Translations under genes and position numbers: made by a program | Part shown: positions 20,747 through 28,262 of the stretch, piece after piece | How the letters are laid out: each line of letters begins with the position of its first letter | How positions within the stretch are numbered: the stretch's first letter is position 1 | The notes under the pieces: model-generated | What the model saw: only the letters and a program-made list of their open reading frames with translations | Database searches by the model: none | Told to the model about the DNA's origin: nothing | Source of the DNA: Candidatus Harpocratesius repetitus | GTDB lineage: Archaea; Asgardarchaeota; Lokiarchaeia; Sigyniarchaeales; Promethearchaeaceae | DNA: 32,000 nucleotides | Direction of reading: 5' to 3' | NCBI GenBank assembly: GCA_021498095.1 | Contig: JAIZWK010000001.1 | Span: forward strand, 4,194,758-4,226,757

Positions 20747-21796
20747 TTAACTTTTTTTACGAAACTGACATTTCAGTTGCCCACATGCTGCCTGAATTTC
20801 ATCACCTAAAGTTCGTCGAATTGTATTTGGAATATGATTTCTTGTAAGAATTTGTTGAAACGCTTCAATCTTTTCCAAAGAAGGAGGTTTAAAGGGAAAA
20901 TCAAGTAAAGGGCTTGCACTGTTAACAGGAATTAGATTAACATGACACAGCATTCCAGATAGAAGATTACTTAATTTATATGCCATTTTGATAGAATCAT
21001 TAATACCCGAAATAAGAGAATATTCAAAAGTAATTCTTCGATGAGTCCGTTCAATATAATCTCTACATGCTTGAATTAATTCATTAATCGGATATTTTTT
21101 GCTAATTGGTACAATTTGATTGCGAATTGAATCAATTGGCGCATGTAATGAGATTGCGAGGGTAATTGGAATCTCCAAATCAGCTAATTCATAAATTTTT
21201 GGGATAATTCCGCATGTCGAAAGTGTAATATGCCGATATCCTAAATTTAAACCATCCTTTTCATGAACTAAATTAAGAAAACGAACAACTTCAGTAAAAT
21301 TATCTAATGGTTCACCAGAGCCCATTAAAACTACAGAAGCGACACGTTGACATGTTTGTTCTTGAATCGTTAAAATTTGTTGGATCATTTCTCCTGCTGT
21401 CAAATTTCGAAAAAAGCCTTCTTTCCCAGAGGCACAGAATGCACAATGCATTTTACATCCCACTTGAGTAGAAATACAAGCGGATATGCCGTGATGATAT
21501 TCCATTTTTACCGTTTCAATTGAAGCACCATCATGAAGCGTAATTAAATATTTTACAGTATGATCAGCAGATTTTAATGTTTGTTTAATTTCTGGTTTAA
21601 AAAAGTAAAAATTTTCTGCAAGTTGAGCACGGAGCTTTTTTGGAATATTTAGCATTTCATCAAACGAAGAAATTTCGTGATATAACCACTGAAATACTTG
21701 TTTTGTGCGATATTTTGGATAATGTAATGTGTTTTCGATGAAATTTTCCAATTCTGAAATGGTCAATGAATAAATATACCGTATTTTTCCGTTCAC
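20747..21796 (-). CDS. rlmN: Dual-specificity RNA methyltransferase RlmN (radical SAM; 23S rRNA m2A2503 / tRNA m2A37)
   Basis: CISTQVGCKMHCAFCAS (CxxxCxxC), LMGSGEP, ITLSTCG, AISLHAP, ITFEY, HVNLIP, IQAACGQL (methyl-carrier Cys). GTG start. Confidence 0.92.
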   Translation of the reverse strand: MNGKIRYIYSLTISELENFIENTLHYPKYRTKQVFQWLYHEISSFDEMLNIPKKLRAQLAENFYFFKPEIKQTLKSADHTVKYLITLHDGASIETVKMEYHHGISACISTQVGCKMHCAFCASGKEGFFRNLTAGEMIQQILTIQEQTCQRVASVVLMGSGEPLDNFTEVVRFLNLVHEKDGLNLGYRHITLSTCGIIPKIYELADLEIPITLAISLHAPIDSIRNQIVPISKKYPINELIQACRDYIERTHRRITFEYSLISGINDSIKMAYKLSNLLSGMLCHVNLIPVNSASPLLDFPFKPPSLEKIEAFQQILTRNHIPNTIRRTLGDEIQAACGQLKCQFRKKS

Positions 21797-21962: not shown

Positions 21963-22478
21963 ATGAAAATTGGAATATTATCAGATACTCACGATCATTT
22001 AGCAAATATCTCTAAAGCAGTCGATCTATTCCTAAATGAAAAAGTAAGCAAAATTATTCATTGTGGTGATTATATTGCTCCATTTGTTATACGGGCAATG
22101 ACTAAGCTAATTGAACATAAAATACCTGTTTACGGTGTATTTGGAAATAATGATGGGGAAAGAATTGGATTAAAGAAAATTGCAGGAAAAATTATTGAAT
22201 TTAAAGGGGAATTTTTTGAATTTACCGAAAATAATTATAAATTAGCGGTTTATCATGGAACAGATGAACGAATTTTGCAAAATCTAATTCATTCCCAATT
22301 TTATGACGTGTTATTAACAGGACATACACATCAAATAAAAATTGAAAAAGTTGGGAAAACATTATTAATAAATCCTGGTGAAACATGCGGTTATCTTACT
22401 GGAAAAGCGACATGTGCAGTATTAGATTTATCATGCAAACATTTATCACAAGATAATGTTCAAATTTTCGAGTTATGA
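21963..22478 (+). CDS. YfcE/MJ0936-family metallophosphoesterase
   Basis: ILSDTHD, IHCGD, VFGNND, YHG, GHTH, INPGE. Confidence 0.9.
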   Translation: MKIGILSDTHDHLANISKAVDLFLNEKVSKIIHCGDYIAPFVIRAMTKLIEHKIPVYGVFGNNDGERIGLKKIAGKIIEFKGEFFEFTENNYKLAVYHGTDERILQNLIHSQFYDVLLTGHTHQIKIEKVGKTLLINPGETCGYLTGKATCAVLDLSCKHLSQDNVQIFEL

Positions 22479-22529: not shown

Positions 22530-23423
22530 TTATTTCTTCTTCTGCTTATAGATTTTATAAGCTTCGATAATTTCTGGAGGGGCACGTTTACATTTTGGTA
22601 AATGGCGGAGAACTGAAACTTTTGCTTTTTGACAGAACGGACAAATTTGCTTAACTGCATCACCGGTTCCTACAGTTTTTATCTTTTTTATAACATCATT
22701 TTCAAAATCAATTGTACTAGCTGATGTAGTGCTTCTTGTATCATCATCAATCTCATCTTCAATAACTTCTTCTTCATCATCTATTCCAATTATGTCGTCT
22801 TCAAGTTCTTCTAACTCTTCATCAAGTTCTTCATCTTCTTCTTCAATTTCGTCTTCTTCGAAAATTTTACCATGTTTTTTACCTAATCCTTCTTCACGTT
22901 CATCTTCATAATCCAGTTCATCTTCTGGTTCTTCTTCAGTAACTCCAATAACTAAAGCAACATCTTCATCATCTTCGAATTCTTCTTCATCTTCGAATTC
23001 TTCATCTTCTTCATCTTCTTCGATTGCTTTTTGAGCAGATCGTTTCTTTCGCTTGACTGGTTTAACGATTTCTTCTTCAAGTTCCAAGTCATCTACATCA
23101 AGATCAAGATCTTCATCGAATTCTAAAGATTCATCACCAAAATCGTCATCAGATATGTCAATTTCATCAAGATCATAATGAAAATCAGGTGCATCATCTG
23201 CTATATACATTTCACTGTGAGTTAATTCATCTTTTCTTTCGCGATATAATTCACAAACTTGACAGACGATATTATAGGGACTCATAGTGAATTTTCGGGT
23301 TTTACATCGACAAAGCGGAGCACCTGAATTAGAAATGGCATTCAGAGAGACTAATTGCTCGCAAGCAATGACACGAACATTTTTTTTTGATTTGGAAGAT
23401 TTTTTTGGCATAATAGTGCACAC
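22530..23423 (-). CDS. Hypothetical highly acidic low-complexity protein with an N-terminal Cys cluster and a C-terminal C2HC-like Zn finger
   Basis: Long D/E-rich core with basic islands (KPVKRKKR, GKKHGK); N-terminal C…CRC…CQVC; C-terminal CPFC-x9-H-x3-C. The likely start is ATG 23411 (MPKKSSK). Confidence 0.8.
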   Translation of the reverse strand: MCTIMPKKSSKSKKNVRVIACEQLVSLNAISNSGAPLCRCKTRKFTMSPYNIVCQVCELYRERKDELTHSEMYIADDAPDFHYDLDEIDISDDDFGDESLEFDEDLDLDVDDLELEEEIVKPVKRKKRSAQKAIEEDEEDEEFEDEEEFEDDEDVALVIGVTEEEPEDELDYEDEREEGLGKKHGKIFEEDEIEEEDEELDEELEELEDDIIGIDDEEEVIEDEIDDDTRSTTSASTIDFENDVIKKIKTVGTGDAVKQICPFCQKAKVSVLRHLPKCKRAPPEIIEAYKIYKQKKK

Positions 23424-23607: not shown

Positions 23608-23701
23608 TAGAGATTTATTTGTATTTAGATGCTTTTTTTACATATAGATGCTTTATTTGTATTTAGATGCTTTTTTTATTTTTAGATACTTTATTTTAAT
23701 G
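23608..23701. repeat. 19-bp-period imperfect tandem repeat, core TAGAT(G/A)CTTT
   Basis: Cores start at 23626, 23645, 23664 and 23683 (exact 19-bp spacing). A degenerate unit lies at 23608 and an isolated TAGATGCTT at 23561. Confidence 0.85.
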
Positions 23702-23704
23702 TTG

Positions 23705-24625
23705 ATGTCTATGGTTATTTCAGAACTTTTCTACGAAGAGCCTGTATATAGGCCGCCATCTGAAGGAAAAAAATCATTATTAATTACAGCCACTGTAGGA
23801 TGTTCTTTTAAATGTACATTTTGCTATCCATACCGACATAAAAAATTCCGTATTAGAGCTGTTGATGAGATAATTGAAGATATCAAAAAAGCGCGAAAAA
23901 TGTTAGGTCCAAATGTTGAACGAATATTTTTGTTGGACGGCAATGCTTTTGTGATGAAACCAAATGATTTAGTTGCAATATCGGAAGCTTGCTACAAATA
24001 TCATCCAAAACTGCAGAGGGTTAGCGCATATGCACATGCAAAAGATATTCTTCGTAAAAGCGACTTAGAATTGAAAGAAATCCAAAATTCAGGTATAACA
24101 ATGGTGTATATGGGCATAGAAACTGGGGATGATGAATTGCTGCAGAAAATTAACAAACATACGAACGCAAATGAATTGCAACAAGCTGCACAGAAATTGC
24201 ATAAAGCCAGAATAATTCTATCAGGCACAGTTATTTTAGGATTAGCAGGAGATAATATTGAACTTAGTAGGCGACATGCAATTAGAACAGCCCAGTTAAT
24301 TAATTCCATGAACCCTGCAAAGCATCAAGATTGGTATATCTCAGCATTAACCTTAATGCTCCCTCCAGGAACTCTCCTTGCAAATAAATATCAAAATGGA
24401 GAATTCACTCCACTTTCTCAAACAGGGATATTGCAAGAACTTCGATTAATGATTGAACATATCTCTGATGATGTTCATGATTGCATTTTTCGGAGCAATC
24501 ATGCATCTAATTACTTGGTATTAAAGGGTATTTTAAGTAAGGATAAACAGAAATTCTTGCATCTAATTGATCAAGCACTTCAAAATCCATCAATGCTCCG
24601 ACCGGAATTTTTTAGAGGGCTTTAG
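23705..24625 (+). CDS. Uncharacterised radical SAM protein (YRPPSE-type N-terminus)
   Basis: EEPVYRPPSE, TVGCSFKCTFCY (CxxxCxxC), FLLDGNAF, YMGIETG, FRSNHASNY. The track's 23648 start is an extension through the repeat; the real start is probably 23699-23711. Confidence 0.88.
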   Translation: MSMVISELFYEEPVYRPPSEGKKSLLITATVGCSFKCTFCYPYRHKKFRIRAVDEIIEDIKKARKMLGPNVERIFLLDGNAFVMKPNDLVAISEACYKYHPKLQRVSAYAHAKDILRKSDLELKEIQNSGITMVYMGIETGDDELLQKINKHTNANELQQAAQKLHKARIILSGTVILGLAGDNIELSRRHAIRTAQLINSMNPAKHQDWYISALTLMLPPGTLLANKYQNGEFTPLSQTGILQELRLMIEHISDDVHDCIFRSNHASNYLVLKGILSKDKQKFLHLIDQALQNPSMLRPEFFRGL

Positions 24626-26026: not shown

Positions 26027-26746
26027 ATGTCGAATGTCAATAATCTGATCGAATTTCCACATCCTTTAATAAAACGAAATTATCATCTAATTCGCCACTA
26101 TTTATTGTTTCTAGTTGATATTGGATTAGATTATCTAAAAAGAGAATATCTTCGCCATAATTCAGAAACTTCTTTTCAAGAATTTACCGCAAATAATTAT
26201 TATGATTATATTCTAAAGGATTATCTTCGTCGCAAATTGAAAGGGATATTAAAAGTCATTTTAAAAGCATCTGTAGAAGCAACTAAATATTTTAAAGATG
26301 AAAAAATCGATGCATCTGAATTAGATAGAATTGTGAAAAAATATTATCCCGAATATGCAGAAAATGATATGTCTCTTCTTCATAGCTCACCTAGCCATCC
26401 TAATCGAAGTGAATTGGAAACGATCAGTCGACTTACTTTTAGAGTGGCAATCATTCAAACAACACGAATTATTCAATGCAAGTATGAAAATATTAGTTAT
26501 TATTCTGATCTCATCCGAACGGTTTATCCAGACAAAATACAATGCCAAATTTCTTTACATGCTATATTAACTATGATAGATCAAATGATTGACTGTTTTG
26601 AAAGATCTTTAGATCTGATCTCCATTCCTTTTTACAAACCGACATGGAACTTGCGTGATTTTGCATATATTCGCAAAATATATGAATTTGCAATTACAGA
26701 AACTAATCATCAAATTGATTTAATTTATCAGGGGGAAAAAATATGA
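26027..26746 (+). CDS. Hypothetical, predicted all-alpha protein, translationally coupled to the TrmB gene
   Basis: 239-aa ORF with a GGGGAG SD-like element upstream and an ATGA overlap with the next gene; no motif recognised. Confidence 0.75.
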   Translation: MSNVNNLIEFPHPLIKRNYHLIRHYLLFLVDIGLDYLKREYLRHNSETSFQEFTANNYYDYILKDYLRRKLKGILKVILKASVEATKYFKDEKIDASELDRIVKKYYPEYAENDMSLLHSSPSHPNRSELETISRLTFRVAIIQTTRIIQCKYENISYYSDLIRTVYPDKIQCQISLHAILTMIDQMIDCFERSLDLISIPFYKPTWNLRDFAYIRKIYEFAITETNHQIDLIYQGEKI

Positions 26747-27624
26747 AAAAGTACAAAATGCCCAAGTTAAAACCGGAAATTCGCAGTGCCATGAAAGCGA
26801 TTGGATTTACGGACTATTTTATTAATCTTTTTATTACACTTCTGAATTCAGGAGAAATGAACGCTCACGAATTAAGTGAAATTACACATGTCCCCTATTC
26901 ACGTATCTATGAAATTCTCAATGAAATGGTAGCCAAAAAAATCATTACCAAAATAGATGGTCGACCAAGTACATTTATAGCCAATGATCCTACTGATGTA
27001 TTTATGTACATGAAACGCCAACAAGAGCAGATTTTTAGCGAAAATATTAATACAACACTCCCTATTCTTAAACAATTATTTGGTGAAAAACGACCAACAA
27101 AACAGGTTCAATTTACACTGCTCGAAGGAGATAAAGCCAGTCGAGATCATCTCCGAAATCTTATTAATGCAACGTCTCATAAATTACAAGCAGTAATTAG
27201 AAATGTAGCGGAAGTTTACCCCTTAATCAGACATAATTTAGATTTTCTTCGTACGAAAGGTGTAGAAGTTCAAATAATTATTGAAACAGAATTTGTAAAT
27301 GAAGAATTCATTCCAATCTTGGAAAACCATTGTGATATTAAATATGTAGATCACATTTTTCAAACTCTTTTTATTTCTGATGATAATGTTGCATTTCAAT
27401 CTGCCAAAGGATATTTTGATATTGCAAACCCAAAAATAAAAGGATATTCTATATTCAGTTCCACTGATACGAAGTATATTATGTACACCCAACAAATCTT
27501 TGAAAATATTTGGAAAATTGGAATTCAAAAAGAACAAATTCAACAAAAAAGTAAATCATCGAGTAATTCACAGAAAAAGGCAACTAGAACAAGTAAAAAG
27601 GCAGTAAAATCTGAAAATAAGTAA
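26743..27624 (+). CDS. TrmB-family transcriptional regulator
   Basis: N-terminal wHTH (IGFTDY…MNAHELSEITHVPYSRIYEILNEMVAKKII…GRPSTFIANDP), a PLD-like effector domain (LFISDDNVAF), and a basic disordered tail. Confidence 0.87.
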   Translation: MKKYKMPKLKPEIRSAMKAIGFTDYFINLFITLLNSGEMNAHELSEITHVPYSRIYEILNEMVAKKIITKIDGRPSTFIANDPTDVFMYMKRQQEQIFSENINTTLPILKQLFGEKRPTKQVQFTLLEGDKASRDHLRNLINATSHKLQAVIRNVAEVYPLIRHNLDFLRTKGVEVQIIIETEFVNEEFIPILENHCDIKYVDHIFQTLFISDDNVAFQSAKGYFDIANPKIKGYSIFSSTDTKYIMYTQQIFENIWKIGIQKEQIQQKSKSSSNSQKKATRTSKKAVKSENK

Positions 27625-27656: not shown

Positions 27657-28262
27657 TTACAATAATTTTATATTCCGTTTTATATATGGAGGCTTAGAAA
27701 GAAGCAGTTTTACTAGCTCTTTAAAAATTAAGCTTGTATTATAACCTGTTTTTGAAGATGTCTCAAAAGCACTACTTGCACCTAGTTTTTTTCGGATGTC
27801 CTCAACGATAGTAGGATCAATTTTTTTGTTTTCATTAATTATATCATATTTTGCACCTACTAAAATAGAAGGAATATTATCTGAATTAGCTCGTAATAAG
27901 GGCAACCATTTCTCTTCTAAACGAATTAAAGAATGGAAAGCAGTCATATCATAAACCCATATTACACCATTAGCCCCAGAGATAAATTGTGGAAGAAGTG
28001 GGCGAAAACGTTCTTGGCCACCAAAATCCCAAATTGAGAGCCCAATTCGAATTTTTTCACCGTTTTCTTCTGCAAGGATGGAATAACTATTAAAACTTAA
28101 TCCGATAGTAAGTTTTGTGTCTAGAAACTCCGAATAACAAAATCGATTAGTGATGCACGTTTTGCCCACACCACCTTCACCCAAAAGAATAATTTTGAAT
28201 TGGTAACGGATATTCTCATTCAAGTTTTCCATCATTGCTTTATATTTCACCATATAATTCAC
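27657..28262 (-). CDS. Rab/Ras-like small GTPase (eukaryotic signature protein)
   Basis: G1 GEGGVGKT, G2 TIG, G3 WDFGGQERF, G4 GAKYD, G5 ETSSK; no C-terminal Cys prenylation motif. Confidence 0.92.
   Translation of the reverse strand: MNYMVKYKAMMENLNENIRYQFKIILLGEGGVGKTCITNRFCYSEFLDTKLTIGLSFNSYSILAEENGEKIRIGLSIWDFGGQERFRPLLPQFISGANGVIWVYDMTAFHSLIRLEEKWLPLLRANSDNIPSILVGAKYDIINENKKIDPTIVEDIRKKLGASSAFETSSKTGYNTSLIFKELVKLLLSKPPYIKRNIKLL

Follow-up and report, generated by a model that had tools for sequence, protein, structure and literature searches.

Long, disordered D/E-rich tracts are carried by the histone chaperones nucleoplasmin, NAP1 and prothymosin-alpha, and in HMGB1 and the Firmicutes RNAP delta subunit a basic nucleic-acid-binding module is joined to a long D/E region, within which RNAP delta also has a block of lysines. 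Such tracts autoinhibit DNA-binding proteins, including HMGB1, and can speed their target search (PMC10250230). The mitochondrial nucleoid protein C17orf80 (MTNAP1) combines a CCHC finger, which defines the spacing C-x2-C-x9-H-x3-C (PMC10445727), with a long disordered region, and the TFE-beta/RPC39 proteins have a winged helix followed by a C-terminal Fe-S domain with the cysteine order C-x2-C-x5-C-xn-C. Here we describe an archaeal protein that has a long D/E-rich disordered tract like that of the chaperones, a basic block within it as in RNAP delta, a finger of the C17orf80 spacing and, similar to TFE-beta/RPC39, a four-Cys cluster domain, and that by the sequence tests we ran lies outside the nucleoplasmin, NAP1, RNAP delta, TFE-beta/RPC39, Elf1 and UBZ families.

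The arrangement of these parts differs from each of the described systems. In HMGB1 and RNAP delta, which we compare for their way of working only, the acidic region is a tail, whereas here it is internal and lies between two folded domains; and unlike in the acidic histone chaperones, both ends are basic folded modules and the acidity varies widely across orthologues. The parallel with RNAP delta had been drawn in an initial annotation made from the letters alone, and it did not hold, in that no delta domain was matched; neither an HMG box nor the N-terminal HARE-type helix-turn-helix of RNAP delta (RpoE) gave a Pfam match, the N-terminus being a Cys hairpin domain. C17orf80 has its finger at the N-terminus together with an ATP synthase subunit f-like membrane domain, whereas the family described here has a C-terminal finger and no such domain, and orthology with C17orf80 was rejected because only a mobile finger of ~20 residues is held in common. 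The protein probably works in a manner that resembles DNA-binding proteins with acidic tails, and the reading that we prefer, with roughly even confidence, is a nucleoid or transcription accessory factor whose acidic linker would mimic nucleic acid towards the basic modules.

A disordered acidic linker between two folded modules

The gene lies on the minus strand at positions 22530-23411 of the window (the whole 32,000-nucleotide stretch that was analysed), in a genome that forms one contig of 4,361,485 bases. It encodes 293 aa counted from an ATG with which the orthologue starts coincide, and the calculated pI of the protein is 4.2. The open reading frame and all of the motifs and spacings listed in the initial annotation are present (Cys 17, 34, 36, 50 and 53; C257, C260, H270 and C274). 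That annotation had proposed two Zn-binding modules, and two folded metal-type modules with a disordered linker are what we find, although zinc in the N-terminal one was an assumption and Fe-S is possible there. The protein starts with a Lys/Ser-rich basic tail (residues 1-13, 23373..23411, minus strand as are all features of the gene) of a type shared with the tailed proteins of the genome. From the alignment and AlphaFold2 this is followed by a folded N-terminal domain made up of a β-hairpin and short helices (residues 11-80, 23172..23381), then by the linker, delimited by composition and predicted disorder (residues 72-226, 22734..23198), and by a folded basic C-terminal module in which a helix, a hairpin, a CCHC finger and a closing helix succeed each other (residues 232-293, 22533..22718). 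In the AlphaFold2 model of the full-length protein residues 11-80 and 232-293 are folded, with pLDDT mostly 70-95, and most of 93-231 is unfolded, with pLDDT <50 over residues 93-165, 175-189, 210-218 and 222-231. The evidence supports an undescribed, conserved Lokiarchaeia protein in which a disordered linker is flanked by two folded metal-type modules.

Using a profile of the N-terminal domain we found the gene in 141 of the 153 other genomes of the order that holds Promethearchaeum, Lokiarchaeum and Sigynarchaeum (13/13, 1/1, 123/135 and 4/4 genomes by family), and a broader profile finds exactly one copy in 91 of the 94 order genomes that are at least 90% complete. The same N-terminal profile gave marginal fragments only, and no credible match, in 246 other genomes of the phylum, and with the broader profile 0/7 genomes from other orders of the same class have the gene, absence beyond the order meaning here that none was found in the genomes searched. 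The gene is therefore a single-copy core gene of one order, and the suggestion of a generally Asgard factor has to be narrowed, since the architecture is not pan-Asgard but confined to that order in the genomes searched. Among 1.84 billion cluster representatives a search recovered 32 proteins, made up of the family, one other architecture and two repetitive, noise-like sequences; protein P0082 was left out because it looks like a chimeric assembly. A 179-aa protein with a possible helix-turn-helix (not significant in Pfam, E 0.056) and a coiled coil ends with a C-terminal four-Cys domain as in the family, and its taxon, Bathyarchaeia, is taken from the NCBI source label alone, a type of label that proved unreliable for another protein. 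The gene for this protein (locus L041:170-709) is convergent with genes bearing formylmethanofuran-dehydrogenase-type domains.

Close homologues occur in Promethearchaeum syntrophicum (DSAG12_01428) and Ca. Lokiarchaeum ossiferum (NEF87_003782), both of the host's family, and since both species are cultured the family is directly testable. In the literature searched we found no paper that names the orthologues, and their locus tags and accessions were absent both from it and from the supplements examined of the Asgard chromatin preprint; nor did the papers searched describe a histone chaperone or an acidic chromatin factor from Asgard archaea. We conclude that the family is real and order-wide, that it has gone undescribed, and that it combines one unclassified domain with a revealing exchange of modules. 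As it is found in one order only and shares with eukaryotes no homologous part but the short finger, it would be a parallel to the eukaryotic chromatin factors and not their ancestor.

The initial annotation had put D/E at more than half over about 155 residues of the linker, which is exact (83 of 155 residues, or 54%) and beyond chance within the genome. In fact the best 100-residue window of this protein (0.59 D/E) is the highest among the 3,357 ORFs of the genome, and among 3,193 proxy proteins it alone has a 150-residue window of at least 50% D/E. (The genome has two further strongly acidic proteins, at 882551-884401 and 3984547-3985800, whose best 100-residue windows are 0.56 and 0.49 D/E.) Across the family the linker always alternates acidic and basic blocks, while its length and charge differ. 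Whole-protein net charge runs from -78 to +8, with the host protein at -55 near the acidic end and several members near zero or positive (+2, +4, +6 and +8). Because of this span a polyanion sink alone is not the conserved property, and a blocky linker that would fold back on the basic modules seems the better fit. The basic block kept family-wide within the linker (residues 117-124, 23040..23063) had been called NLS-like; the block is there, yet 41% of the proxy proteome carries the motif K[KR]x[KR], and we rejected the NLS reading because a motif that is common background carries no information. A second element, at residues 151-181 (22869..22961), is aromatic-acidic and among the aligned one-finger homologues is conserved to the same degree as the folded domains, with a mean column agreement of 0.69 vs 0.38-0.48 in its flanks; this candidate motif may bind a partner.

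A rival reading is a dedicated histone chaperone, in which the linker would bind Loki histones stoichiometrically and pass them on to DNA, where the finger would serve as anchor. The conserved aromatic-acidic motif and the most acidic stretch of the genome suit such a role, the host has 8 histone-fold genes (three of them with Lys-rich tails), and in cultivated Promethearchaeia histones are abundant, at 3.8 to over 20.8% of protein (bioRxiv 10.64898/2026.07.02.735847). However, the core domains of nucleoplasmin, NAP1 and Asf1 gave no Pfam or NCBIfam match, their folds are not among the fold-search matches listed (which does not exclude such a fold), and the positively charged members show that strong acidity is not conserved. 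Moreover no histone gene lies near the locus, and the gene was not found in the 246 out-of-order genomes searched although the Hodarchaeales also have abundant tailed histones (bioRxiv 10.64898/2026.07.02.735847). A complex prediction with a tail-less histone dimer and the full-length protein scored 0.00 without controls, and speaks neither for nor against binding. Of the proposed histone chaperone or nucleic-acid mimic, then, the host histones stand while the chaperone part is one that we consider unlikely; similarly, of the broader idea of an undescribed chromatin, transcription or condensate factor, the undescribed nature and a tie to nucleic acids through domain swaps stand, whereas neither condensates nor histones are singled out.

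The N-terminal four-Cys domain and its metal

Comparison across lineages separates a constant from a variable part, with the N-terminal four-Cys domain defining the family and the C-terminal module being interchangeable. In an alignment of 41 diverse sequences C17, C36, R39, C50 and C53 are invariant, giving a spacing of C-x18-C-x13-C-x2-C. The cluster of five cysteines noted initially is present, but only four of them are invariant; several lineages have Phe, Tyr, Ile or Ala in place of C34, and for this reason we assign four ligands, not five, to the metal site. The AlphaFold2 model of the domain has a mean pLDDT of 90.9. Profile searches with this module on its own found no match to a characterised family, and nothing significant appeared in Pfam, NCBIfam, PDB-sequence or Atlas searches; a match to the GatB Cys motif (E 0.15) was dropped after it fell to E 1.6 with a broader profile. 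The family adds an unclassified four-Cys domain. Although TFE-beta/RPC39 proteins also have four clustered cysteines, theirs follow the winged helix at the C-terminus in a different spacing, whereas here they are N-terminal, and hhalign found no profile similarity to the host genome's TFE-beta (probability <1%). Replacement of TFE-beta was rejected, as a separate TFE-beta coexists in all four families, including in the host genome and the winged-helix lineage, and so was replacement of Elf1 in the host genome, where the PF05129 Zn ribbon is absent at this gene and a true Elf1 is encoded elsewhere.

Foldseek searches against PDB and viral structures gave no match at E 0.001 or better, returning WW-like hairpins and generic fingers only. 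When 48,161 solved chains were compared with the N-terminal model just three reached Z ≥2, the best, and a weak one, being HPAD-gamma (2y8n_B; Z 3.2, rmsd 1.6 over 37 residues), followed by a likewise weak match to MASS-beta (9o8u_B; Z 2.3) and a third chain that is unrelated. The HPAD-gamma match recurs with the full-length model (Z 3.1; rmsd 1.6-1.8 over both models, 37 residues), although the HPAD-gamma and MASS-beta matches share a fold and are not independent, and their Z values are far below the level that the tool trusts. Both proteins are HiPIP-like [4Fe-4S] small subunits of glycyl radical enzymes (PMC12358834), and the likeness, at these weak scores, is to the predicted fold of our domain. 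In MASS-beta the Cys pair comes first (PMC12358834), whereas in the N-terminal domain of the family it comes last, a reversed order. The PF18671 and PF18524 profiles did not match at this gene, and an HPAD-gamma profile found nothing in 251 genomes of the phylum, where the controls were equally silent. We lean somewhat towards zinc as the metal of this domain, and treat a [4Fe-4S] cluster, which the modelled fold suggests with a smaller though real chance, as a lead.

Exchange of fingers, winged helices and Lys-rich tails

The C-terminal CPFC-x9-H-x3-C module noted initially is real, and its finger (C257-x2-C260-x9-H270-x3-C274, 22590-22643) meets the C17orf80-type spacing. Across 47 fingers of the family that have this spacing the C, C, H and C do not vary, and the last 60 residues of the host protein have a net charge of +9. 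PF28519 is on record for two-finger orthologues, though not for close one-finger homologues, and its Atlas score of 0.89 we take as a lead only. The number and nature of the modules change across the order: two fingers are present in its largest family (46 distinct sequences), a second family has a shortened finger, and all four Sigynarchaeum-family genomes, including Ca. Sigynarchaeum springense, have a winged helix instead. This winged helix scores 29.1, 21.8, 24.8 and 29.9 bits against Pfam B-block_TFIIIC (cut-off 22), also matches RPA_C and Rpc34, and in the PDB is closest to RPC39 WH2 (E 2.1e-6), followed by Lrs14 and MarR regulators; in the host genome we did not find it as a separate gene. 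A tree of the N-terminal domain splits winged-helix from finger forms, but the fork is below the support threshold of the tool and the tree is unrooted, so we draw no order of events for the swap. The C-terminal module is probably DNA-contacting.

The same finger occurs on other proteins. All 14 TFE-beta loci retrieved from the largest family encode a protein with this finger at its N-terminus. Finger-bearing TFE-beta, which was confirmed as an RPC39 homologue (E 1.4e-8), is also found in one genus of the host's family. In one genome checked the finger further starts aIF2-gamma (locus L154:130-1578) and a ScpA-like protein (L160:589-1575) whose ScpA match is below the Pfam cut-off. In the host genome the finger of our gene is the only one of its kind, and TFE-beta, aIF2-gamma and the ScpA-like protein have long Lys/Ser/Thr N-terminal tails where the others have the finger, so that finger and basic tail hold the same slot in different lineages. 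Of the 18 other ORFs of the host in which such a tail was seen, 9 code for proteins that bind DNA or RNA and a further 2 for proteins associated with the ribosome; similar tails are seen on three histones, the RNAP subunit Rpo1C, RadA, TopoVI-A, uS7, eS26, MetAP and Sec61-beta, and this protein's own N-terminus carries one. A small finger and Lys-rich tails are thus seen trading places on core information-processing proteins. We infer that the finger gives a general nucleic-acid affinity like that of a Lys-rich tail, with which its exchange for a winged helix fits.

Several other proteins of this type were noted in passing. TFE-beta is ~200-245 aa long in the finger and tail lineages, whereas in the Sigynarchaeum family and other Asgard most are 113-142 aa, and a family of unknown function (~340-410 aa) starts with the finger in several genomes and with an acidic tract in the host (3980528-3981778). 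A 125-aa protein at 2345087-2345461 of the genome, with a long Lys-rich tail, a C-terminal Cys cluster and no Pfam match, is a candidate nucleoid protein.

Starting from the architecture and distribution that we observe, we infer each of the following binding steps for a housekeeping factor, found throughout the lineage, that acts on the nucleoid or on the transcription machinery. The protein would be anchored to nucleic acid, with little sequence specificity, by its basic C-terminal module together with its Lys-rich tail. The acidic blocks, as a nucleic-acid mimic, would bend back onto the basic ends of the same protein, an autoinhibition as in HMGB1, and could also compete for the Lys-rich tails of histones, TFE-beta, RNAP, RadA, TopoVI and ScpA and loosen their grip on DNA, with the four-Cys domain as a putative specific docking or dimerisation unit. 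The domain swaps point to nucleic-acid transactions, and the single-copy state and the many DNA- or RNA-binding proteins among the tailed ones of the host also speak for this role, while the absence of histone and RNAP genes from the neighbourhood speaks against it. Since the finger also tags aIF2-gamma and the protein of unknown function, its ligand could be RNA or a protein surface, and it counts against the nucleic-acid reading that the winged helix also matches RPA_C, a protein-binding module, and that in some family members the terminal finger precedes an acidic tail.

Were RNA the ligand, the basic modules might bind it while the acidic linker escorts basic ribosomal and translation proteins. 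The finger on aIF2-gamma and the Lys-rich tails on uS7, eS26, MetAP and Sec61-beta fit such an RNA- or ribosome-side chaperone, as do a 50S-binding-type GTPase gene 1-2 genes off in 3/4 Sigynarchaeum-family loci and an RlmN gene two genes away in the window. These neighbours are however not kept across families and the winged helix that takes the finger's place most resembles transcription proteins, and we regard the idea as doubtful. A bolder extension of the transcription reading, which we rate a long shot, would make the family a general factor of transcription or chromatin specific to the order, its four-Cys domain being a permuted HiPIP-like [4Fe-4S] domain and its linker buffering the Lys-rich tails of the lineage. 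If true, the four-Cys domain would possibly be redox- or iron-responsive, and a eukaryote-like charge-buffering chromatin factor would have arisen independently from archaeal parts.

Conserved gene neighbourhood

A radical SAM gene lies within a few kb of the family gene in all four families, here as a divergent gene (23648..24625, plus strand), which is part of the neighbourhood and probably not a partner; its four different arrangements rule out an operon link as evidence. The convergent metallophosphoesterase gene (21963..22478, plus strand) belongs to the same conserved neighbourhood, and no histone or RNAP gene was seen in the family neighbourhoods examined. An MPN+/JAB gene is found directly upstream and in the same direction in 45/46 two-finger loci and in 3 one-finger loci, and a PCI-domain gene is often near. 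This arrangement, together with a weak match of the finger profile to the FAAP20 UBZ (E 0.038), would suit a Sem1/DSS1-like role in which the acidic protein serves as adaptor to a JAMM/MPN isopeptidase, or to a complex resembling the proteasome lid, and the finger reads ubiquitin. UBZ fingers use a conserved helix Asp for ubiquitin binding, whereas the fingers here have an Arg before the His, a Lys/Arg before the last Cys and no Asp column, and it would be odd for a winged helix to replace a ubiquitin reader. Nor is the adjacency general across families: the host's MPN gene is at about 1.737 Mb, ~2.5 Mb from our gene, and the MPN gene is convergent in another family and not adjacent in 11 other one-finger loci or in any winged-helix locus examined. 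We find such an adaptor improbable, take the proximity of MPN and radical SAM genes mainly as conserved gene order, and give a connection with JAMM-dependent proteolysis a minority chance. In the largest family the conserved MPN+/JAB protein has a helical C-terminal half (L030:6205-7869) and the PCI-domain protein is at L030:11032-11790.

A promoter scan gave a shuffle-level result only. In the divergent region, ahead of the radical SAM ORF or extending over its start, there is a 19-base tandem repeat of 4.4 copies (window 23614-23698), an array that a quick motif check did not find elsewhere. The RlmN-type radical SAM methyltransferase (20747-21796), bacterial in style in an archaeon, has a counterpart next to the L. 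ossiferum locus. The conserved neighbourhood further takes in a Ras-family small GTPase (27657-28262) and a basic-tailed TrmB-type regulator (26743-27624).
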